Positions 1 through 7,887 of a stretch of 7,887 bases of DNA are shown in pieces; the first letter of the stretch is position 1; the number at the start of each line of letters is the position of its first letter. Below the pieces are notes generated by a model, which worked only from the letters and a program-made list of their open reading frames with translations, was not told the origin of the DNA and searched no databases. The stretch covers positions 1 to 7,887 of the IMG/VR virus record IMGVR_UViG_2695420565_000011; one strand, given 5' to 3'. A program made the position numbers and the translations under genes. Source of the DNA: a virus (lineage: Duplodnaviria > Heunggongvirae > Uroviricota > Caudoviricetes).

Positions 1-25
1 CCCCCCCGAAACCCCCCCCCCCCCC
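1..25. repeat. Homopolymeric C tracts (C7-GAAA-C15-GAAA) at the window edge; G-tracts on the minus strand
   Basis: Read directly from the sequence. Homopolymers this long are unusual in enterobacterial DNA. Confidence 0.9.
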
Positions 26-68
26 GAAAGGCTCTGTGGTTGGTATGCGCCGGGCGTGGCGCAGATAC

Positions 69-92
69 AAAAAAGGCCCGCAAAAGCGAGCC
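69..92 (-). terminator. Intrinsic terminator downstream of the tRNA cluster
   Basis: Minus-strand RNA folds as GGCUCGC-UUUU-GCGGGCC (7-bp stem with one G.U, 4-nt loop) followed by UUUUUU (plus 69-74 = AAAAAA). It begins 16 nt past the 3' end of the Arg tRNA. Confidence 0.55.
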
Positions 93-108
93 GGGAAAAT
101 AAGTGTAG

Positions 109-182
109 CGCGTTGTACTGGAGTCGAACCAGTGACCGATTGCTTAGAAGGCAATTGCTCTGTCCTGCTGAGCTAACAACGC
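109..182 (-). tRNA. argO: tRNA-Arg, anticodon UCU (reads AGA/AGG)
   Basis: Manual cloverleaf on the minus strand: acceptor GCGTTGT/ACAACGC (7/7), D stem GCTC/GAGC, anticodon stem ATTGC/GCAAT with loop CT-TCT-AA, T stem ACTGG/CCAGT with loop TTCGACT. The 3' CCA is not encoded (G-CUA). Symbol is by position in the ileZ-argN-argO order recalled for Stx-type lambdoid phages. Confidence 0.8.
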
Positions 183-195
183 AGAATACCGATAA

Positions 196-271
196 TGGAC
201 CACCACCGGGGACTCGAACCTCGCACACTCAACTTAAAGGGTTGACGCTCTTTCCTGATGGCTAGTGGCGG
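196..271 (-). tRNA. Atypical tRNA-like gene (76 nt with CCA); canonical positions give anticodon UUU with C33; possibly degenerate
   Basis: Acceptor CCGCCAC/GTGGTGG pairs 7/7 (one G.U); anticodon stem TCAAC/GTTGA is perfect with loop CCTTTAA; T loop is TTCGAGT. But the D stem has only 2 Watson-Crick pairs, the T stem has one A.C mismatch, and position 33 is C rather than U. It sits where argN would be in a Stx-phage layout, but the sequence does not give a CCU or UCU anticodon. Confidence 0.5.
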
Positions 272-272
272 T

Positions 273-348
273 TGGTGGCCCTTGCTGGATTTGAACCAGC
301 GACCTGGCGATTATGAGTCGCTCGCTCTCACCACTGAGCTAAAGGGCC
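273..348 (-). tRNA. ileZ: tRNA with anticodon CAU, most likely tRNA-Ile2 (AUA-reading after lysidine modification) rather than elongator Met
   Basis: Cloverleaf: acceptor GGCCCTT/AAGGGCC (7/7), D arm TAGCTCAGTGGTGAGAGC, anticodon loop CT-CAT-AA, T arm GCTGG-TTCAAAT-CCAGC, encoded ACCA 3' end. Overall sequence resembles E. coli ileX more than metT (from memory). Confidence 0.8.
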
Positions 349-450
349 GGGCGCAGGATAATAACGTTACGAAATCAATGTTGCAAGCATACAAAAATCA
401 CCCTTATCTCCTCCACCAGCGCATTCACCATGTCTATCCGAGATAAGTGG

Positions 451-479
451 CACAACAAAACCCGCTTGTGGGCGGGTTT
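451..479 (-). terminator. tR'-like intrinsic terminator closing the short transcript downstream of the Q-like gene
   Basis: Perfect inverted repeat AAAACCCGC / GCGGGTTTT (plus 456-464 and 471-479) with a 6-nt loop. Minus-strand RNA is CCCGC-CCACAA-GCGGG followed by UUUUGUUGU. About 70 nt downstream of the predicted start site. Confidence 0.45.
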
Positions 480-531
480 TGTTTGCTTTTGCCATCACGT
501 ACAAAATCGGCAAAATATCAGATTTGCATGA

Positions 532-560
532 AATATATGCCTTTCAATCTACTTTTGCAA
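532..560 (-). promoter_or_regulatory. pR'-like late promoter candidate overlapping the 3' end of the Q-like gene
   Basis: Minus strand: -35 TTGCAA (plus 555-560), 17-bp spacer, -10 TATATT (plus 532-537). A -10-like GATATT lies at about +12 to +18 of the predicted transcript, as expected for a sigma70 promoter-proximal pause used by Q proteins. Confidence 0.35.
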
Positions 561-1233
561 CACTTTGCTTTGAAAATGCCGCCTTTTGTTTTGAACGTGT
601 TCTCATTACAAATAATAAAGCCTCACTATCCAGTCGGTGAAAAATGTGTTTCATTGCAACCCAGTGACGAGTAAATGTTTTGGACCAGTTTTTAGTTGTC
701 ACTCCCGCCAGTAATGCCAGCTCCTGATATTCATAACCTTCCCCACCAAAAAGTTCTGCTTTTACTGCCTGCGCCGCCAGCCAGATTAATTTTTTCAGGC
801 GTTCCTGCGTTTTCCCAGCAATTTTTCTGGTACCGGATTGAGTATTAAATTCATTCCACGCCCACTGTGTTATCGCGATCTGATATTCCCAACAAATACT
901 CCCGCTGTAACACCACAACAACCAGGCTTTATGATGTTCTTCAAGAGACAGAACAGCCCGCCGCCACGATGATGTCGAAAACTCAACCGGACTGACCAGA
1001 GGAATTGACGTCACCTTCGCCAGCGATTGCTTTCCCGGGATTGGTGGATTATCCCGCGTTATCATTTTTCCAGTCACTTCATCGCGGTACCGGATTTTTT
1101 TTCGCCTGTAACGCCCTGTATCGAACATGGCATTCTCCTGCCAGGCTTCAAGCTGACCTTTTGTTGCCCCACTCAAATCAGCGGTGGCGATAATGAGCTG
1201 CTCACGCACAAACTGTAAATAGTGGTTATTCAT
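544..1233 (-). CDS. Q-like late-gene antiterminator (QuuQ/YdfT-type placement), 229 aa
   Basis: Position is the main evidence: directly after rusA with an ATGA stop/start overlap, directly before a promoter-terminator pair and the tRNA cluster. Start moved from the track GTG (1239) to the ATG at 1233 that overlaps the rusA stop. No zinc-finger pattern seen; family assignment is contextual. Confidence 0.5.
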   Translation of the reverse strand: MNNHYLQFVREQLIIATADLSGATKGQLEAWQENAMFDTGRYRRKKIRYRDEVTGKMITRDNPPIPGKQSLAKVTSIPLVSPVEFSTSSWRRAVLSLEEHHKAWLLWCYSGSICWEYQIAITQWAWNEFNTQSGTRKIAGKTQERLKKLIWLAAQAVKAELFGGEGYEYQELALLAGVTTKNWSKTFTRHWVAMKHIFHRLDSEALLFVMRTRSKQKAAFSKQSVAKVD

Positions 1234-1595
1234 GCGCACTCCCGTTCTGTGATTTTTATCCCCAGCCGCCCACCAGGAACGAGCTGACCGCGCACAATAT
1301 TGATTTCATCAAACTGCTCGTCGTCTATGAGAAGTCCGGCATGCGTCAGCACATCCAGTGGTGCTTTCAGGATATTGTCCAGGTCACGACGGCGCTTATC
1401 CGGTGGCTCTGCAATAATCTTTATCACCAGCCTTCCGGACAGGTTTAATTTCAGCCGCTGCTGGCGAACAATTAGCGCCACATCACGGCGATAACGCTTT
1501 CCGGCTTCCGAGATGAAATACGTATTGCCATGACGTCGCCAGTAGGTATTCACCGTCGGCGGGTAAGGCAAAACAAATTCTATCCGTTCAGTCAT
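1230..1595 (-). CDS. rusA: RusA Holliday-junction resolvase
   Basis: 121 aa. The segment PDKRRRDLDNILKAPLDVLTHAGLLIDDEQ matches the RusA catalytic region recalled from E. coli RusA (PDRRRRDLDN...DALTKAG...DD). The ATG abuts the stop of the upstream gene (TGA-ATG). Confidence 0.85.
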   Translation of the reverse strand: MTERIEFVLPYPPTVNTYWRRHGNTYFISEAGKRYRRDVALIVRQQRLKLNLSGRLVIKIIAEPPDKRRRDLDNILKAPLDVLTHAGLLIDDEQFDEINIVRGQLVPGGRLGIKITERECA

Positions 1596-2651
1596 TCATG
1601 CTTTCCACTTCAGGACACCCGAATTTCTCGCGTGCATTAAAAAACGAATCAGCAACAACAGCTGGCTGCCGTGTTTTTCTTCAAAATCTTTTACCCCAGC
1701 GTGCAGTTCGTTATGACATTTACGGCACAGCGGAATAACAAACAAATCATCAGCCTTTGTTCCCATCCCTCCCAGTCCATGACCAATGATGTGATGCGGA
1801 TCATCTGCCTGATTACCGCACGTCATGCATTTCTGCGTTTTTACCCAGCGCGTGTATACAGGCATCTCTTCCCGTTGTGGTTTCTGGCGCTGGAGATACT
1901 GAGCCGGTGACTCCGGATCAACGGCAATGCTGACCACCGTCTTTTCCTGTGGCGGGTTTTGCTGGTGGGCGTGAGGCAGCGGCGCAAGATTTTTTGTGCG
2001 CTGCTTCAGTATGATGGTGGCGGTCTGCTCTCCCGGTACGATGTCGCTTTCACGGTACATTGAGCGGATTTTTTCCGCACGCAACCCCAGCGAACGACGT
2101 AATACCGCTTCCGGTAGCGCGTCCGCCACCTGATTGCGGACCGCCCACCAGGATAATTCAGCCAGAGATAATTCACGCTCCTGCGTACCGCTTATTGCGT
2201 GACCGATGACGTCAATCATCCATGCTGACAGGTTTTGATGAGCAAGTTGCTCGAGTGATTCGGATGTCTGGTCACGCAGCTGGTTGTCGCAGTGCCAGCA
2301 CAACACCATTGCGCCGGTACCGTAACGGTGAATGACGGTTTCGCTGTGATGATAATCACCGTGTAGCCACTGGCAGGATTTCACGTGACGTAATAACCAG
2401 TCAGACAGTGCACCAGCGCCACCCGCAGCACGGCTCACCCGCTCATCGCTGAAAAATGGCAGTAGTGATTTATCTTCCGCCAGCGGCTGGTGAACGGCAG
2501 GTACAACCCCGGACGGCAGAGCTCGCATGCTTTTTGGTTCCGGCTCCACCAGTATTCTGCCGTTATGGAATGCTGACATTGATTCACGGCCTGGCTTAAC
2601 GATAACCAGACCGAGTTCCGGTACCAGAACAGGTCGAAGTAATACCCGCAC
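1596..2651 (-). CDS. ydfU: DUF968 / YdfU-like lambdoid protein with C-terminal HNH-like Cys/His cluster
   Basis: 351 aa from a GTG start preceded by GGAGG. C-terminal motif CMTCGNQADDPHHIIGHGLGG...LCRKCHNELH (C-x2-C ... C-x2-C-H). Same size and same position (upstream of the late-region Q gene) as YdfU of the K-12 Qin prophage, recalled from memory. Confidence 0.7.
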   Translation of the reverse strand: MRVLLRPVLVPELGLVIVKPGRESMSAFHNGRILVEPEPKSMRALPSGVVPAVHQPLAEDKSLLPFFSDERVSRAAGGAGALSDWLLRHVKSCQWLHGDYHHSETVIHRYGTGAMVLCWHCDNQLRDQTSESLEQLAHQNLSAWMIDVIGHAISGTQERELSLAELSWWAVRNQVADALPEAVLRRSLGLRAEKIRSMYRESDIVPGEQTATIILKQRTKNLAPLPHAHQQNPPQEKTVVSIAVDPESPAQYLQRQKPQREEMPVYTRWVKTQKCMTCGNQADDPHHIIGHGLGGMGTKADDLFVIPLCRKCHNELHAGVKDFEEKHGSQLLLLIRFLMHARNSGVLKWKA

Positions 2652-2652
2652 A

Positions 2653-2931
2653 TTACCTCCAGATCCGTTGCTGGAATGTGCGGGACGGACGCGGTGGCCG
2701 TTCGGAGTAAGGGAGCCTGACGGAGATTATCCAGTGACGGTAGTCGAGGCTAAGGGCTTTTTTAACCTCGCATCCGCGCCTGCGGTAACACTGAATGAGC
2801 CATTCGGCCTGTTCTTCAGTGCATGGGGGATGCTGGTACCAGTCAGATTTGAATGCGTGAAAACACCGTCCGCGCCTGCTGGCAAAGACGGCAGAATCAT
2901 CAGAATTGTATAATTTGGTATCGTGCGCCAT
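2653..2931 (-). CDS. Hypothetical protein, positional equivalent of rem in Qin-like prophages (92 aa from internal ATG)
   Basis: The track ORF starts at a TTG (3012) that lies inside the hok terminator hairpin, so the start was moved to the first ATG (2931). Cys/His-containing basic protein with no recognised catalytic motif. Confidence 0.4.
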   Translation of the reverse strand: MAHDTKLYNSDDSAVFASRRGRCFHAFKSDWYQHPPCTEEQAEWLIQCYRRRGCEVKKALSLDYRHWIISVRLPYSERPPRPSRTFQQRIWR

Positions 2932-3001
2932 CGGTTGTCTCTGCTGGCGCAGCAGGTGCCAGTTGTTCAGGCTGGCGTGCGAATTGTAAACCAGAATGCC
3001 A

Positions 3002-3030
3002 GGAAAAAACAAAACCCGCCGAAGCGGGTT
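3002..3030 (-). terminator. Intrinsic terminator of the hok transcript
   Basis: Minus-strand RNA: AACCCGC-UUCG-GCGGGUU (7-bp stem, UUCG tetraloop) followed by UUGUUUUUU. About 70 nt downstream of the hok stop codon. Confidence 0.65.
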
Positions 3031-3069
3031 AAGTGCGGGTGCGTTGAGGATGCCTGATTCATCAGAGGT

Positions 3070-3091
3070 GGCGAGGGATTTCTCCCTCGCC
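3070..3091 (-). other. Stable hairpin in the hok 3' UTR (9-bp perfect stem, GAAA loop on the RNA)
   Basis: GGCGAGGGA / TCCCTCGCC inverted repeat with a 4-nt loop, 7 nt after the hok stop. No U-tract, so it is not a terminator; likely an mRNA folding or stability element. Confidence 0.5.
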
Positions 3092-3098
3092 GGGTCTC

Positions 3099-3254
3099 TT
3101 ACTCCTCAGGTTCGTAAGCTGTGAAGACAGCGACCTCCGTCTGGCCGGTTCGGATTCGTACCTCGCAGAGGTCTTTCCTCGTTACCAGTGCCGTCACTAT
3201 GACGGTGATACAGATGACGATCAGGGCGATTAACATCGCCTTTTGCTGCTTCAT
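3099..3254 (-). CDS. hokD: Hok/Gef-family type I toxin (HokD/RelF-like), 51 aa
   Basis: Translation MKQQKAMLIALIVICITVIVTALVTRKDLCEVRIRTGQTEVAVFTAYEPEE: one transmembrane helix plus the conserved Cys-containing periplasmic tail, near-identical to K-12 RelF/HokD as I recall it. AAGGAG sits 9 nt upstream of the ATG at 3254. The 19-codon in-frame extension in the track ORF (to 3311) is rejected. Confidence 0.85.
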   Translation of the reverse strand: MKQQKAMLIALIVICITVIVTALVTRKDLCEVRIRTGQTEVAVFTAYEPEE

Positions 3255-3375
3255 AGCCTGCTTCTCCTTGCCTTTCGGCGCGTAAGAGGCTAACCTACAT
3301 ATGTCTAGCATGAAATTGGCCTCAGATTAATGTTAGGCGTCTTGCAGGACGCGTAATGTTAACTGGGGCTTTTCT

Positions 3376-3411
3376 CTGTCTGCCTTACGGTGGCATGCCC
3401 GAGGCAGACAG
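3376..3411 (-). promoter_or_regulatory. GC-rich hairpin at the predicted 5' end of the hok mRNA leader
   Basis: 9-bp perfect stem CTGTCTGCC / GGCAGACAG with an 18-nt loop that contains the palindrome GGCATGCC. No U-tract on either strand. Confidence 0.45.
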
Positions 3412-3429
3412 CCTCAAGCACCCGCAGCA

Positions 3430-3457
3430 ATTCTACTTAACTCTCGCTTTACCGCAA
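3430..3457 (-). promoter_or_regulatory. Candidate hok promoter
   Basis: Minus strand: -35 TTGCGG (plus 3452-3457), 16-bp spacer, -10 TAGAAT (plus 3430-3435). The predicted start is about 10 nt before the 5' hairpin, giving an mRNA of roughly 420 nt, similar to plasmid hok mRNAs. Weak -35; low confidence. Confidence 0.3.
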
Positions 3458-3470
3458 ACCGTTTTTACCC

Positions 3471-3490
3471 GATATGGGAATTCCCATATC
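3471..3490. repeat. Perfect 20-bp palindrome GATATGGGAATTCCCATATC (candidate dimeric-regulator operator)
   Basis: Exact reverse-complement symmetry read from the sequence. Located between the small peptide ORF stop (3500) and the candidate hok promoter. No flanking U/T tract, so not a convincing terminator. Confidence 0.6.
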
Positions 3491-3499
3491 GTAATGAAT

Positions 3500-3604
3500 T
3501 CAGTTCCCTAGTCGATCCATCAAAAACACAACCAGGCAGTAAACGCCCACAACAGCAATAACAGCCAGAGCACCTTCCATTGCCAGTGAAATATCATCCG
3601 ACAT
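3500..3604 (-). CDS. Small membrane peptide ORF, 34 aa (MSDDISLAMEGALAVIAVVGVYCLVVFLMDRLGN), below the ORF-track size cutoff
   Basis: ATG at 3604 is preceded by AAAGGAGGGAAT, a near-consensus Shine-Dalgarno. Acidic N-terminus, one hydrophobic helix, short polar tail. An AT-rich promoter-like stretch lies upstream. Confidence 0.4.
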   Translation of the reverse strand: MSDDISLAMEGALAVIAVVGVYCLVVFLMDRLGN

Positions 3605-3719
3605 ATTCCCTCCTTTGGTGTGAATCCCGGCGAACGTTTTTACCCCCACCGACAAATAACATATACTAAAAAATCAATAGCTATAGCAACGCCTGTAATT
3701 GCAAAGGCTTCAGGCCAGA

Positions 3720-4364
3720 TCATTGGCGCACCTCCTGCGGCGGTTCTGGTAGCGGCATCCAGTCGGTTACATTGCGGCTCTGTGTTTCGAAAAATTCATC
3801 ACCATTACGGACTACATCAAAAAACTCACCGTCTCGATATTGCGCATAAAGAACGAATGCGCCATCACATAAAATAATTACGTGCTGACCATCATCCGGC
3901 ATTCGCTCACTACAGCTTATCCAACCATCCGGAGTTACCGGATAGTTTGTTGACGTTTCCGAGATTTCCCGAAAATTATTGGTTGACGAACCCTTATTTT
4001 CCCGAAAGTTTCCAGCCTGAAGCATGGCGGCGCTGTCTGGCGGGGCAGCATATAGCGGCACGTATATTTCCGGTTCCTTATCAGCACCGGGTTGCTCTTC
4101 CAGTGAGAATGTCTTTCCGGTAAATCGATTCATATAAAGCACGGGCTCTGCTTCCAGCGAAGCCTGAGCAACAAGGGCCAGTGCTAAATCCAACTCAATT
4201 GCCTCGAGAGAATTTTTGAATACTGTCTGTTTTACTGCAAATTTCATCGCCTTTACATTTTCACTAACATGACTGATTAACTGCTCTTTTGTAAAAGTGG
4301 TCATCTCATTCTCCTTTGATGCGAATGCCAGCGACAATTGAAGCCTGATAGCTAATTCACTCAC
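3720..4364 (-). CDS. Phage protein with C-terminal DUF551-like domain, 214 aa
   Basis: GTG start at 4364 with GGAGG 7 nt upstream; an alternative ATG at 4304 also has a GGAG. The C-terminal segment DGWISCSERMPDDGQHVIIL...WMPLPEPP resembles the DUF551 signature as I recall it. Confidence 0.55.
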   Translation of the reverse strand: MSELAIRLQLSLAFASKENEMTTFTKEQLISHVSENVKAMKFAVKQTVFKNSLEAIELDLALALVAQASLEAEPVLYMNRFTGKTFSLEEQPGADKEPEIYVPLYAAPPDSAAMLQAGNFRENKGSSTNNFREISETSTNYPVTPDGWISCSERMPDDGQHVIILCDGAFVLYAQYRDGEFFDVVRNGDEFFETQSRNVTDWMPLPEPPQEVRQ

Positions 4365-4453
4365 AGTACCGCCTCCTGAAAATTGCCCTGATAGAACGCC
4401 AGTACACGCAGCATAACTTCACTCTTCCGGCACTCGCCACAGATTATGTTCTG

Positions 4454-4756
4454 TTATCTGTCGTAGCGGCGTATTTCTCCGTCTGGTAACTTTCGAATCA
4501 ATGTCTGGTCGGTTGCTTTCTCCGCTGCCTTACGCCATACGCGATACACCTGTTCTGATGTAAAAACACCGTATTTACCGGGCATGTATAAATCGCCACA
4601 AGCCAGTACATCCACAAGGCAACGTCTGACTGAATGCCAGCCTGCTCCCGTCGCTCTCTCCAGTTGTGATATCGTCATGCGTTCATTTTTGCGTACCAGC
4701 CCGATAATTCGGGCCTTCAGTTCTTCACGCTGTTCGTGTGTAAAAGGTTTCGCCAT
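4454..4756 (-). CDS. Hypothetical basic protein, 100 aa
   Basis: ATG preceded by GGAGG; starts 15 nt after the stop of the upstream gene, suggesting co-transcription. No recognisable motif. Confidence 0.55.
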   Translation of the reverse strand: MAKPFTHEQREELKARIIGLVRKNERMTISQLERATGAGWHSVRRCLVDVLACGDLYMPGKYGVFTSEQVYRVWRKAAEKATDQTLIRKLPDGEIRRYDR

Positions 4757-4771
4757 AAGCGCCTCCGGCTA

Positions 4772-5542
4772 TCACTTTTCCGATACAACACGGCGGGAAG
4801 AATCAGTAATCTGTCGAACAATATCCCGGTGCTTGTTCAGCTCCCGCAGCGCGGCGCAGACTCGCTCCCACTTCTGAACATCACTTTTCGCCCTGCGCAG
4901 CGCCAGGTTTGCCCTGCGCAGGGACGGAAAAATCAGCTCATCTGCTTGCGTTTCGGTAAACGATAGCAACGGCTGCACAATGTCCGCCACAGTTTCTGTT
5001 TTAATTTCTTCCTGTGTTGCGGCTTCCCGGACTGGTAACGCAGCACCTGCTGGCTGAGGAAAGGCCTTACCATCATTTTTCGTTACCGGCGCGGCTTTCG
5101 GATCTGCTGGTAAATTACCCCCCGACATGCAGTAACGAAATTTACCGTTCTGATTAACGCGTGCCAGCCGCCCCGTTGCGGTTACCACCGCCAGCGTGGA
5201 AGCAACCTTGCGAGTACTGACGCCGAACTTACCCGCCAGTTCCTCACACGTTTTAGCACCATCCTGACCGATAAACTCAACCATCATGTCTGCGGTAACT
5301 TTTGGAGCGACCTCTTCGGTTACCACATCCGGCGCTTCAGGTTGTAGTGCCTGCCCTTCGGTTACCCCGGCTTCACCTTCGACAGCCAGAAACCAGGTGT
5401 GACCCGTTTTATCAACAACGCCATTTTTTTTGAGTTCCCACAGTTCGTTAAGAACTTCTTCACGGCTGATATCAAGCCGCGCCGCCAGTTCAACAGAATT
5501 GGCTTTTCCCATCGCTTTCAGTGCATGCAATACAGTTTCCAT
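4772..5542 (-). CDS. Hypothetical protein with two winged-helix-like segments, 256 aa
   Basis: N-terminal MGKANSVELAARLDISREEVLNELWELKKNGVV and a second similar segment GAKTCEELAGKFGVSTRKVASTLAVVTATGRLARV, then a Pro/Ala-rich linker and a helical C-terminus with a short LRRA repeat. No enzymatic motif. Confidence 0.6.
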   Translation of the reverse strand: METVLHALKAMGKANSVELAARLDISREEVLNELWELKKNGVVDKTGHTWFLAVEGEAGVTEGQALQPEAPDVVTEEVAPKVTADMMVEFIGQDGAKTCEELAGKFGVSTRKVASTLAVVTATGRLARVNQNGKFRYCMSGGNLPADPKAAPVTKNDGKAFPQPAGAALPVREAATQEEIKTETVADIVQPLLSFTETQADELIFPSLRRANLALRRAKSDVQKWERVCAALRELNKHRDIVRQITDSSRRVVSEK

Positions 5543-5567
5543 CGAAAATTTACCTCGTCAAAAATTC

Positions 5568-6308
5568 TCACATACCCTGACGTCCAACGTTTGACCGCCA
5601 GCTCTCCCAGTTAAAATTCACCCAACGACCACCATTCATGGTCATACGGTCCATCACCCGATCTCCGAGGAGTGTGCTCATCGCTGCGTGATTCAGGTTC
5701 GTCAGCATTCCGACACTACGCATCGAAGCCGTTCTGCGGTCGACTATCTGGTTCAGCGTGACCTGCTCGTTGCGCGTATCCCGCTGCATGCCAATTTCAT
5801 CAAGGACCAGAAGGTCAACTCCACAAAGCTCCTGTAAAAATTTTTCCCCGGACTGGCCGTTGTCGTAGCCGTCATGCAACACGCTCATGACATCGGACAC
5901 GGTGACGATAATCACGCTTCTCCCCTTCGCCATCAGCCGATTGCCAATCGCTGCTGCCAGGTGATTTTTACCGGTACCAGGTTTACCGCTGAACACGAAG
6001 TTTGTACATCCGGTCATCAATTCATCGGCAATGGATTTCGCCTGGCTCAGAGCATGGCGCTGACCGTCGTTCTGCACCCGGTAGTTCCCGAATGAGCACT
6101 TCCTGTGAAGCGGCTGGATGCCCGCACGGTTCAGGATTTTTTCAACCCGCACCTGATGATTCAGGCGGTTAATCTCCTCGCTGCGTTTTCGTCCTTCAGC
6201 AAGTTGCCATTCCCGCCACTCCTCCACCGTCCGGTACGGTGGAACCGCCCCCTGTGGTGCAAGTCTGCGAATACGTTCAAGAACCCCAACTGCCGCAATG
6301 TTTTTCAT
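5568..6308 (-). CDS. DnaC/IstB-like AAA+ helicase loader (functional analog of lambda P; YdaV-like)
   Basis: Walker A GKPGTGKNHLAAAIG and Walker B LLVLDEIG. The start lies 6 nt after the initiator gene stop. Size is 246 aa. Confidence 0.85.
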   Translation of the reverse strand: MKNIAAVGVLERIRRLAPQGAVPPYRTVEEWREWQLAEGRKRSEEINRLNHQVRVEKILNRAGIQPLHRKCSFGNYRVQNDGQRHALSQAKSIADELMTGCTNFVFSGKPGTGKNHLAAAIGNRLMAKGRSVIIVTVSDVMSVLHDGYDNGQSGEKFLQELCGVDLLVLDEIGMQRDTRNEQVTLNQIVDRRTASMRSVGMLTNLNHAAMSTLLGDRVMDRMTMNGGRWVNFNWESWRSNVGRQGM

Positions 6309-6314
6309 GACACG

Positions 6315-7277
6315 TCACCCCCTGAATCCCGGCGGTATTTCAGTGTCCGGTTCAGAAATGTGATTCACGCAACGCTGCGCAGGCGAACGCCCCAGGCGGA
6401 TAACCAGTTCATCCCATTTTTCCCGGAGTTTTGCCGGACTCATGATGTTTTTTACCCAGAACGAATCCCGCTGGAGACGCCCAAACATTTCACAAATTTG
6501 TCTGTGAGTTCTGCCATCCAGCATCCGCATTGTGCGAACGTCATTGGCCCATGCTGTCCAGTTGGGTTCTTTCGGTCTAGTGATCTCGCCATCATCGCTG
6601 GCCGCCTGCTCGTAAAGACTCACGATTCGTCCCCAGATCCACTGTGCGCACACCAAATCTTCCTGACTTCCCCACTGGCGTTTTTTCGCACTGAACACAA
6701 CCGCGTCAGGGTGTCGGGTTAAAAAATCCTGTTCAGCCGTCTGCGGGTCCGGTTGCGAAGCGTCCGGACAAGAAGATCTTTTATCTGACGGATCAGGTTT
6801 TAATACTGACGGATCGGGGTCAATCATCGCCCCCCTAATCGGCAGTTTTTTATCAACAGTTGATCCATCAAAATTTGACGGGTCAACCGTTGAGGGGTCA
6901 ATATTTGACGGGTCAACTGTTAACGGGTCATTTTTTGCCGGGCTAATTTTTCTTTTCGGTTTATATGACTCACGCGCCGCCGCCGCAGCTGCTTCGAGTT
7001 TTTCCACATTAAGCCGATAGATATTGCTTACATTACGCCCACCGACCTTACGCTCTTCCTTCGTCAGCCAGCCCTCTTTCGCCAGTTCTGCAATAGCCGA
7101 TTTCACTGTGGATTCACTTCTTGCACCGATCTGACGCCGGATAGTTTCAATGGCAGGCCATGACACGCCCTCGTCATTGCTGTAGTCTGCAAGACGGGCC
7201 ATAACCGCCACCCTGGATAAGATCATGCCGGTGAAGGCGCACCCTTCCCAGACAAGACCATGAAGCTTGCTGCTCAT
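6315..7277 (-). CDS. Replication initiator (lambda O analog; YdaU-type placement)
   Basis: N-terminal helix-turn-helix-like domain, then a linker whose DNA encodes the iteron array (protein repeats DPSNIDPSTVDPSNFDGSTVD), then a C-terminal domain. Start set to ATG 7277 (GGGGG upstream) rather than the track GTG at 7292. Confidence 0.7.
   Translation of the reverse strand: MSSKLHGLVWEGCAFTGMILSRVAVMARLADYSNDEGVSWPAIETIRRQIGARSESTVKSAIAELAKEGWLTKEERKVGGRNVSNIYRLNVEKLEAAAAAARESYKPKRKISPAKNDPLTVDPSNIDPSTVDPSNFDGSTVDKKLPIRGAMIDPDPSVLKPDPSDKRSSCPDASQPDPQTAEQDFLTRHPDAVVFSAKKRQWGSQEDLVCAQWIWGRIVSLYEQAASDDGEITRPKEPNWTAWANDVRTMRMLDGRTHRQICEMFGRLQRDSFWVKNIMSPAKLREKWDELVIRLGRSPAQRCVNHISEPDTEIPPGFRG
6875..6934. 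repeat. Candidate replication origin: four 15-bp direct iterons (TTGACGGGTCAAYNN), each with internal dyad TTGAC-GG-GTCAA
   Basis: GGGTCA recurs at 6880, 6895, 6910 and 6925, an exact 15-bp period. Degenerate copies TGACGGATC lie at 6786 and 6807. AT-rich stretches flank the array (6842-6874 and 6931-6965). The array sits inside the initiator coding sequence, as in lambda ori. Confidence 0.6.
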
Positions 7278-7299
7278 AAAACCCCCGAACACCGTGCTT

Positions 7300-7725
7300 T
7301 TAGTGCATCACCACAGCATTCCCTGCCGGGCCGCCGCGATTCATCTGGTCATACAAAACAACCGCTGACGCAACAAAATCATCGACATCCTTCACCAGCC
7401 GATCCCTCCGTTCGACGATCTCACGGTAATATTCAGAACTGTGGCTGCGCATACGGGCCACCAGCAAAGGCGGCATCGCCTTTTCGATCGCCGGTAACAG
7501 AGCCTGCATTTTTTCAACAGCATCAGGGGTGTCTTTATCCAGCCAACGGAAAATTTTCTGGGTATTACGGGCCAGGGCTTCCGGATGGCTGTCGTCGTAC
7601 AGTTCAGGGAACGTCATCCCCAGTTCGAAATAAGTCCGGGCTATTTCAGCTGCAGGAACTTTCTCACCATCAGGGTATGCCCAGGCATTCATCGCCATGC
7701 GGATGTGCTCATGTTTGATTTTCAT
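7300..7725 (-). CDS. ydaT: YdaT-like protein (CII-analog regulator/toxin family of Rac-type prophages), 141 aa
   Basis: Length and the N-terminal MKIKHEHI match my recollection of Rac YdaT. It sits immediately upstream of the replication initiator, as ydaT does before ydaU. Confidence 0.6.
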   Translation of the reverse strand: MKIKHEHIRMAMNAWAYPDGEKVPAAEIARTYFELGMTFPELYDDSHPEALARNTQKIFRWLDKDTPDAVEKMQALLPAIEKAMPPLLVARMRSHSSEYYREIVERRDRLVKDVDDFVASAVVLYDQMNRGGPAGNAVVMH

Positions 7726-7799
7726 GAATCATTTGCCTCTTGATGCTTCGGGTATGATCGTTTTCGTCATTTGGTTGCTTCATCGACATATTCTGCGAA
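7709..7799 (-). pseudogene. 3' remnant of a cro/ydaS-like gene truncated by the IS insertion
   Basis: An open frame runs from the IS boundary (7799) to a TGA at 7709-7711, encoding ...SQNMSMKQPNDENDHTRSIKRQMIHENQT and overlapping the ydaT-like start by 17 nt. No start codon or N-terminal helix-turn-helix remains in the window. Confidence 0.3.
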
Positions 7800-7887
7800 T
7801 GAACCGCCCCGGGAATCCTGGAGACTAAACTTCCTGAGAAAGAGGTAAACAGGATGACTAAAAATACTCGTTTTTCCCCTGAAGTCC
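7800..7887 (+). mobile_element. Left end of an IS3-family insertion sequence (IS629/IS1203-like), truncated by the window edge
   Basis: Begins TGAACCGCCCCGGGAATCC (IS3-family ends start with TG). An orfA-like start at 7854 encodes MTKNTRFSPEV, matching the IS629 OrfA N-terminus from memory. Only 11 codons are visible. Confidence 0.55.

Follow-up and report, generated by a model that had tools for sequence, protein, structure and literature searches.

The DNA examined here, called the window below, is the whole stretch of 7,887 nucleotides (nt) forming positions 1 to 7,887 of IMG/VR virus record IMGVR_UViG_2695420565_000011, and it corresponds to contig CYCZ01000098.1 of Escherichia coli assembly GCA_001283765.1. 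The minus strand holds all long open reading frames (ORFs) of the window, and three of them fill positions 3720-5542, exactly at the coordinates given by an earlier note made from the sequence, which had described a cassette of three uncharacterised genes encoding proteins of 256, 100 and 214 amino acids (aa). Although the proteins are uncharacterised experimentally, they are not unclassified, because DUF1627, DUF977 and DUF551 are all in Pfam, RefSeq uses these names for them, and PHROGs has the name 'Ren-like exclusion protein'. The three are independent, very common and already catalogued accessory genes, not a new three-gene system, and the window stands out only by a premature stop codon in its Ren-like gene. 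In the order of transcription, the block reads as follows.

4772-5542, minus strand: DUF1627/YdaW-family gene, 256 aa (Pfam DUF1627, E-value (E) 1.9e-98; phrog_630, E 5e-130)
4454-4756, minus strand: DUF977/LygF/Ren-like gene, truncated allele, 100 aa (Pfam DUF977, E 1.3e-58; phrog_142, E 1.5e-24)
4361-4453, minus strand: untranslated DUF977 remnant; read through the amber codon, it is an exact match to the intact 131-aa protein
3720-4304, minus strand: DUF551-domain gene, 194 aa (Pfam DUF551, E 6.7e-21; phrog_60, E 1.2e-45)

The block was correctly placed by the earlier note between the replication module, of which a DnaC/IstB-like ATPase (5568-6308) and an O-like initiator lie upstream, and hok/sok on the downstream side. 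A purine-rich sequence resembling a Shine-Dalgarno element was found 5′ of each of the three start codons, and this together with the strong family matches indicates that the three ORFs are real genes and not chance. All are in one orientation, with 25 nt between the helicase-loader gene and DUF1627 and 15 nt between DUF1627 and DUF977. The description 'tightly spaced' thus applies to this last pair, but the amber codon leaves 149 nt untranslated before the DUF551 gene. Inside the block, promoter-like and terminator-like sites were no more frequent than in shuffled sequence. The DUF1627 stop and the DUF977 start are in one frame (4757-4774, minus strand: TGA TAG CCG GAG GCG CTT ATG). Two metagenome proteins in ENA (P0080, 403 aa; P0124, 372 aa) unite both Pfam domains, DUF1627 and DUF977, in one ORF, and these may be rare natural fusions or artefacts of assembly or gene calling.

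The first gene matched DUF1627 (PF07789) with 327 bits against the Pfam cut-off of 28.1, over profile positions 1-155 of 155. The two winged-helix-like segments noticed earlier in the 256-aa protein were recovered as helix-turn-helix (HTH) or winged-helix matches to Pfam and PDB profiles at aa 3-52 and 87-134. The protein is laid out as a first winged helix (aa ~2-52), an acidic linker, a second winged helix (~84-137), a linker rich in Pro, Ala and Glu, and a basic C-terminal helix (~197-255), the second winged helix being basic as well. An alignment of 37 relatives (21-86% identity) keeps this layout, including an IPSFT-like motif before the C-terminal helix; the N-terminal winged helix is well conserved (METVxDALKAMGKA...W), the acidic linker is variable, and the C-terminal basic helix reads EIRRxKxxLxxLE. 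The family is small, with 161 clusters at 50% identity among 1.84 billion representatives, and the exact 256-aa sequence was found on at least 1000 contigs. Against the PDB, the DUF1627 profile gave only generic winged-helix matches of the AspA, ArsR, MarR and Zalpha types, and sequence and profile searches of the PDB with the proteins returned no solved relatives beyond generic winged helices. The AlphaFold2 (AF2) model, built on an alignment of 37 sequences at 81-100% identity, had a mean predicted local distance difference test (pLDDT) score of 45.8; its secondary structure, including a helix at 197-255, agrees with the layout at low confidence. For the AF2 models in general, the homologue alignments drew on near-identical E. 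coli copies among the best 120 matches.

Two further readings of DUF1627 were considered and set aside. ADAR1, ZBP1 and PKZ were among its profile matches, suggesting a Zalpha (Z-DNA-binding) domain, but inspection by eye of the Zalpha contact residues (Asn and Tyr of helix 3, Trp of the wing) found none conserved in the second HTH and only the wing Trp (W50) in the first, and the matches were judged to reflect generic fold similarity. The idea that DUF1627 is a duplicated Ren came from a match of phrog_142 to aa 86-137 at 5e-6, but direct comparison of the DUF1627 and DUF977 profiles gave a probability of 31%.

The second gene carries the feature that distinguishes the window. Its product is basic (isoelectric point (pI) 9.8), as had been said before, but the length of 100 aa is that of an amber-truncated allele of a 131-aa protein. 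Position 4456 is A in the window and G in relatives that are 99.9% identical (compared with NC_013353), and this change turns codon 101 from CAG into TAG (amber, 4454-4456) and removes the last 31 residues of the DUF977 protein; in the intact allele, 4361-4453 encodes QQNIICGECRKSEVMLRVLAFYQGNFQEAVL followed by the stop codon. In accordance with that, the window allele matched DUF977 (PF06163) with 197 bits against a cut-off of 22.1 over profile positions 1-100 of 134, whereas the intact allele covers 1-134. The amber base was absent from all 5426 complete E. coli genomes, in which the best matches reached 70/71. About 10 contigs encode the 100-aa product in a constant context; they belong to three isolate assemblies and three metagenomes, and the presence of the product in these independent assemblies indicates that the allele is real and rare and not a sequencing error.

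Three classes of DUF977 allele, 49-100% identical overall, are found beside DUF1627. Their N-terminal winged helices diverge, whereas the C-terminal block and the preceding LPDGEIRRY are nearly invariant over the three classes. The amber falls between LPDGEIRRY and the C-terminal block NIICxECRxSExMxRVLAFY, so that the ECRxSxxMxRVLAxY motif, encoded past the amber codon, is missing from the window product. Because the best-conserved element of the family is removed in this way, the product is probably defective, and the DUF977 gene of the window is probably non-functional.

The family is linked to lambda Ren by several comparisons. The profile phrog_142, 'Ren-like exclusion protein', matched lambda Ren at 1.6e-41, the intact DUF977 allele at 1.7e-43 and the window allele at 1.5e-24. 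The intact DUF977 protein and lambda Ren matched each other by BLASTP (2e-6), and hhalign of the DUF977 allele profile against Ren gave a probability of 94.9% (E 4.6e-8). The best shared block is C-terminal, with NIICxECRxSExMxRVLAFY in DUF977 and NLVFKECRQSAAMKRVLAVY in Ren. Judged from these alignments, DUF977/LygF is homologous to lambda Ren. In Pfam, lambda Ren falls short of the DUF977 model, whereas PHROGs does link the two. No functional literature was found under the name 'LygF'.

The third gene matched DUF551 (PF04448) with 75.4 bits against a cut-off of 22, over profile positions 1-68 of 68. The earlier note had described a 214-aa protein with a DUF551-like tail, and the tail is confirmed as a DUF551 domain at aa 147-210 (E 6.7e-21), in the C-terminal 64 residues of that ORF, but the length is likely to be smaller. 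The 214-aa ORF starts at GTG 4364, which overlaps the intact DUF977 stop (GTGA), whereas RefSeq and the matching PHROG profiles start 20 codons further on, at ATG 4304, giving 194 aa. This ATG has a strong AAGGAG in front, and the 56-nt junction past the intact DUF977 stop also precedes unrelated genes in other prophages. For these three reasons 194 aa is the likelier product, and the third gene is most likely a 194-aa DUF551 protein. The junction (4305-4364, minus strand) translates into a pseudo-leader, LAIRLQLxLAFASKE, before the likely real ATG, and it resembles a mosaic recombination joint that brings the ribosome-binding site of the next gene.

The 194-aa protein is acidic (pI 4.5), with a helical N-terminal region followed by the C-terminal DUF551 domain, and its exact sequence occurs on 418 contigs. 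Its AF2 model reached a mean pLDDT of 36.8, with an input alignment at 96% identity or more. A ubiquitin-like segment was considered at residues 55-111 (3972-4142, minus strand), on the basis of FTGKTFSLEEQP ... PPDSAAMLQAG in the DUF551 protein and LTGKTITLEVEP ... PPDQQRLIFAG in ubiquitin. This two-segment resemblance is weak and probably due to chance, since the E of 7e-6 was obtained against poly-ubiquitin chains alone, where the score sums over the repeats, and was 0.9 against single ubiquitin. DUF551 is a portable acidic domain, and its gene here belongs to a large set of interchangeable cargo that can occupy the interval from DUF977 to hok; no more than a role as a putative binding module can be proposed for the domain.

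In agreement with the earlier note, no catalytic domain was detectable in any of the three proteins by a Pfam-type search. Its suggestion that the block is the most plausible site of an undescribed function is not supported, as all three proteins are confidently homologous to ordinary lambdoid proteins (YdaW/DUF1627, Ren/LygF/DUF977 and DUF551). Conserved lambdoid relatives were thus found for all three genes, which is the homology half of what the note itself had named as speaking against its proposal.

We next consider whether the genes form one unit. Of 5426 complete E. coli genomes, 4396 match parts of the 2.3-kb block, and the whole arrangement is found in one place in 377. At the IMG/VR loci with close DUF1627 relatives, which are of Escherichia type, a DUF977 gene begins at a constant offset (+786) in 78 of 80, the contig ending too early in the other two, and the identity of the DUF977 allele ranges from 49 to 100% across the 80 loci. 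These 78 loci suggested an obligate DUF1627-DUF977 pair, but a scan of one genome per species and the phage collection weakened this idea. The scan found DUF1627 homologs in E. albertii, E. ruysiae, Serratia, Salmonella, Buttiauxella and Enterobacter; DUF977 adjoins DUF1627 in E. albertii only, and, E. ruysiae apart, the neighbours elsewhere are Lar-like or unknown small genes. Among sequenced phage records, DUF1627 is present in 24, DUF977 in 24 and both in 12, while the DUF551 domain is present in 375, often in the exo-xis region, and no record covers at least 80% of the three-gene block. Each gene is therefore found without the others in sequenced phages and in other Enterobacterales, and the term 'three-gene cassette' has to be given up.

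The two flanks of the block behave differently. DUF1627 lies directly past the helicase-loader gene in all 72 of the IMG/VR loci compared, where the loader is DnaC-like in 29 and lambda-P-like in 43, and it also does so in five other genera. On the other flank, the interval from DUF977 to hok measures between 1.1 and 4.7 kb at 48 related loci and carries differing small genes (DUF4406, Ead/Ea22-like, DUF7167, HNH, QueH and others), which bears out the earlier statement that the region holds accessory cargo; a DUF551 domain is present in this slot in 20 of the 48. The block is best described as having three parts: a gene fixed behind the replication module, a Ren-like gene as its frequent partner, and a slot for variable cargo.

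Two observations on the distribution stand apart. In E. ruysiae (L084:6004-8073, plus strand) a 689-aa P-loop protein follows DUF1627 directly, in place of DUF977; it gave weak matches of the ORC-CDC6-like, nSTAND3 and AAA_16 types and is a candidate for defence-type cargo. Actinobacillus phage vB_Apl-pPE4 (PP818812.1, 10084-10806) has a DUF1627 gene with 78% protein and 83% DNA identity to the E. coli gene, and its recorded host, Actinobacillus pleuropneumoniae, is unexpected for a prophage gene of Escherichia type.

The remaining genes of the window, upstream and then downstream of the block, are as follows.

7725-7300, minus strand: YdaT/CII-like gene, first in transcription order
7292-6315, minus strand: O-like replication initiator, upstream of the helicase loader
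5568-6308, minus strand: DnaC/IstB-like helicase loader, YdaV-like (Pfam IstB_IS21, 1.5e-19; phrog_50 'DnaC-like helicase loader', 1.2e-81)
3500-3604, minus strand: small membrane ORF of 34 codons, 'hypothetical' in RefSeq, without family match
3249-3423, minus strand: sok antisense RNA locus, overlapping hok (Rfam sok, 114 bits against a gathering score of 59)
3099-3254, minus strand: hokD toxin gene (Pfam HOK_GEF, 2.3e-23; RefSeq hokD)
2653-2931, minus strand: 92-aa ORF between hok and the DUF968/HNH gene (phrog_1212, function unknown, 1.1e-35; without Pfam family)
Past the 92-aa ORF, in order: DUF968/HNH gene, rusA, Q antiterminator, three tRNAs
108-348, minus strand: tRNAs Arg-tct, Lys-ttt and one with a CAT anticodon (Met or Ile2), by ARAGORN, just downstream of the Q gene

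The hok/sok locus is the downstream boundary of the variable cargo slot. The product of the 34-codon ORF is small and hydrophobic (MSDDISLAMEGALAVIAVVGVYCLVVFLMDRLGN), and the ORF adjoins hok in at least 20 related loci; the 92-aa ORF is another conserved unknown in the same operon. Rfam at the gathering threshold reported only the outer two of the tRNA trio. Such a placement of tRNA genes past Q is familiar from Stx-type lambdoid prophages. The RefSeq-annotated stretch of E. coli O103:H2 12009, which is 99.9% identical to the window, extends upstream to ydaT, a ydaS-like gene and racR, and because it runs into the last two, a lambdoid prophage of Rac type is indicated.

The explanation that we favour, with a probability of about 0.6 for the whole, is that the locus is the accessory segment past the replication genes (the 'ren position', where the nin-like region starts) and belongs to the early rightward operon of a Rac-type E. 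coli prophage, and that its first two genes may encode counter-exclusion or DNA-binding proteins. Confidence is high for the gene identities and low for the counter-exclusion mechanism proposed for DUF1627 and DUF977. Identities, family membership, operon position, truncation, prevalence and modularity were computed in this analysis, and from there we infer expression timing and mechanism. The three genes would be delayed-early genes that share transcription with the replication genes and are silent until the prophage is induced or a cell is infected. The products of DUF1627 and DUF977 would act by binding rather than by catalysis, and would help the phage to evade abortive-infection (Abi) or exclusion systems, whether these belong to the host or to its resident prophages; the two may, in addition, serve as DNA-binding accessory regulators.

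Toothman and Herskowitz are said to have found in 1980, by classical genetics, that lambda ren mutants are Rex-sensitive and that ren protects lambda from Rex exclusion. The counter-exclusion role is suggested because Ren reportedly counters Rex in this way and because overexpressed YdaW blocked the retron-Sen2 toxin RcaT, according to a list of prophage 'blockers' that includes K-12 ydaW. In a two-hybrid assay, lambda Ren interacts with the Rex proteins; ren is transcribed from pR together with O and P and is non-essential.

Several points weigh against this explanation. For ydaW, the source is a preprint describing an overexpression screen, where the gene is known from the blocker listing and 11 blockers were re-tested, and the K-12 YdaW that was screened is a truncated protein with a foreign C-terminus. 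One source calls lambda Ren 'likely involved in DNA replication'. Winged helices would suit plain transcription or replication factors equally well, and both AF2 models (pLDDT 46 for DUF1627 and 37 for DUF551) are of low confidence and lend the explanation no structural support.

A broader form of the counter-exclusion proposal can be put forward tentatively, and we consider it rather unlikely as it stands: DUF1627 and DUF977 might represent a widespread class of early-expressed, non-enzymatic counter-defence proteins that bind and neutralise Abi effectors. Their position behind the replication genes would then be explained by the proposed triggering of Abi systems, such as Rex and retrons, by phage replication. 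If this were true, two very abundant prophage DUFs and the long-enigmatic lambda ren would have a function, and the amber allele would be a natural knock-out of the Ren-like half.

Of the competing explanations, the one that survives best, though we regard it as unlikely, is that DUF1627 and the Ren-like protein bind DNA or replication proteins at or near the phage origin and modulate phage replication or shut down that of the host, and that DUF551 proteins act likewise on host initiation. The invariable place of DUF1627 as first gene past the helicase loader, with either type of loader, is consistent with this, but operon position is weak evidence of function. The remark on Ren and replication quoted above, together with the grouping of Ren with O in two-hybrid tests, points in the same direction, whereas neither growth nor replicative killing requires lambda ren. 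The basic second HTH and C-terminal helix of DUF1627 would also fit. Against the proposal, distant DUF1627 loci and half of the DUF1627 phages lack DUF977. As for DUF551, overexpression of yfdQRST of K-12 CPS-53 inhibits initiation at oriC and YfdS carries this domain, but the DnaA-binding protein of that set is YfdR and not YfdS.

It is still less probable that DUF1627 and DUF977 are plain transcription factors, regulating phage or host genes in, for example, the delayed-early to late transition, with DUF551 as unrelated cargo. Many weak matches to the ArsR, MarR, DeoR, Lrp and MntR families of HTH proteins were obtained, but no HTH-family match reached the curated cut-off. YdaW is listed among the predicted E. 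coli transcription factors of unknown function, and DUF977 has been noted as a winged helix in fusions with Fic domains; on the other hand, no target site is on record, Ren is not known to control transcription, and the winged-helix fold serves protein binding too.

The function raised by the earlier note, that the three proteins jointly protect the lysogen by anti-phage action or superinfection exclusion, is very improbable, because the cargo hotspot with the 689-aa STAND/ORC-like ATPase of the E. ruysiae prophage in the same slot, database names such as 'exclusion protein' on DUF977, and the complete arrangement kept in 377 E. coli genomes are opposed by the lack of any significant match in PADLOC-DB v2 (at most winged-HTH-level CRISPR-associated regulators such as Csa3, CasR and CARF, best E 1.2e-5 over about 45 residues, and nothing for the DUF551 protein), by the lack of an enzymatic or effector domain in the three proteins and of a promoter excess that would permit expression in the lysogen, by the position of the genes in an early lytic operon, by their separability in phages and other genera, by the derivation of the 'exclusion' label from Ren, which guards the phage against exclusion and does not itself exclude, and by the premature stop in the middle gene of the window.

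The observation is therefore real but ordinary, as the genes are annotated in thousands of genomes, belong to catalogued families and were already known. For annotators, the points of use are that 'YdaW' of K-12 is a truncated DUF1627 protein, that DUF977/LygF is demonstrably homologous to lambda Ren though unlinked to it in Pfam, and that DUF1627 reliably marks where the replication module ends, with either type of helicase loader. It would also be worthwhile to mine the variable cargo site between DUF977 and hok, in which one relative has a STAND-like ATPase.

Comparison with known systems supports these identities. YdaW of the K-12 Rac prophage (b1361, 186 aa) is 58% identical to the window protein over aa 1-154 and breaks off after about residue 154, where an internal deletion in Rac joins ydaW to rzpR; it therefore lacks the C-terminal helix and carries a foreign C-terminus, whereas the window protein is full length at 256 aa. 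K-12 YdaW has its full-length counterpart in the window gene. YdaW of phage Rac-SA53 (ALP46883.1, 253 aa) is 67% identical to the window DUF1627 protein over its full length, and the order ydaU-ydaV-ydaW-lygF in that phage, with lygF being DUF977, is the order of the window.

For the third gene, YfdS of CPS-53, variant V2 of Ea22 and EaA-type proteins of lambdoid and Stx phages share the acidic C-terminal DUF551 domain and have variable N-terminal regions. The lambdoid and Stx proteins differ from that of the window in their N-terminal part, and many are located in the exo-xis region, whereas the window gene lies downstream of the replication module.

Lambda Ren (NP_040633.1) differs from the DUF977 proteins in several respects. 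The latter exceed it by about 35 residues and contain an insert in which SEQxxxxW...LPDGEIRRY occurs. In lambda, ren lies directly past P, whereas in the window DUF1627 separates DUF977 from the loader, and the shared C-terminal motif is present in the intact DUF977 allele but cut from the window allele. Nevertheless, both are small, basic winged-helix proteins with nearly the same pI (9.8 for DUF977 and 9.9 for Ren), and DUF977, like ren, is encoded past the replication genes in the early rightward (pR) operon and on the same strand.

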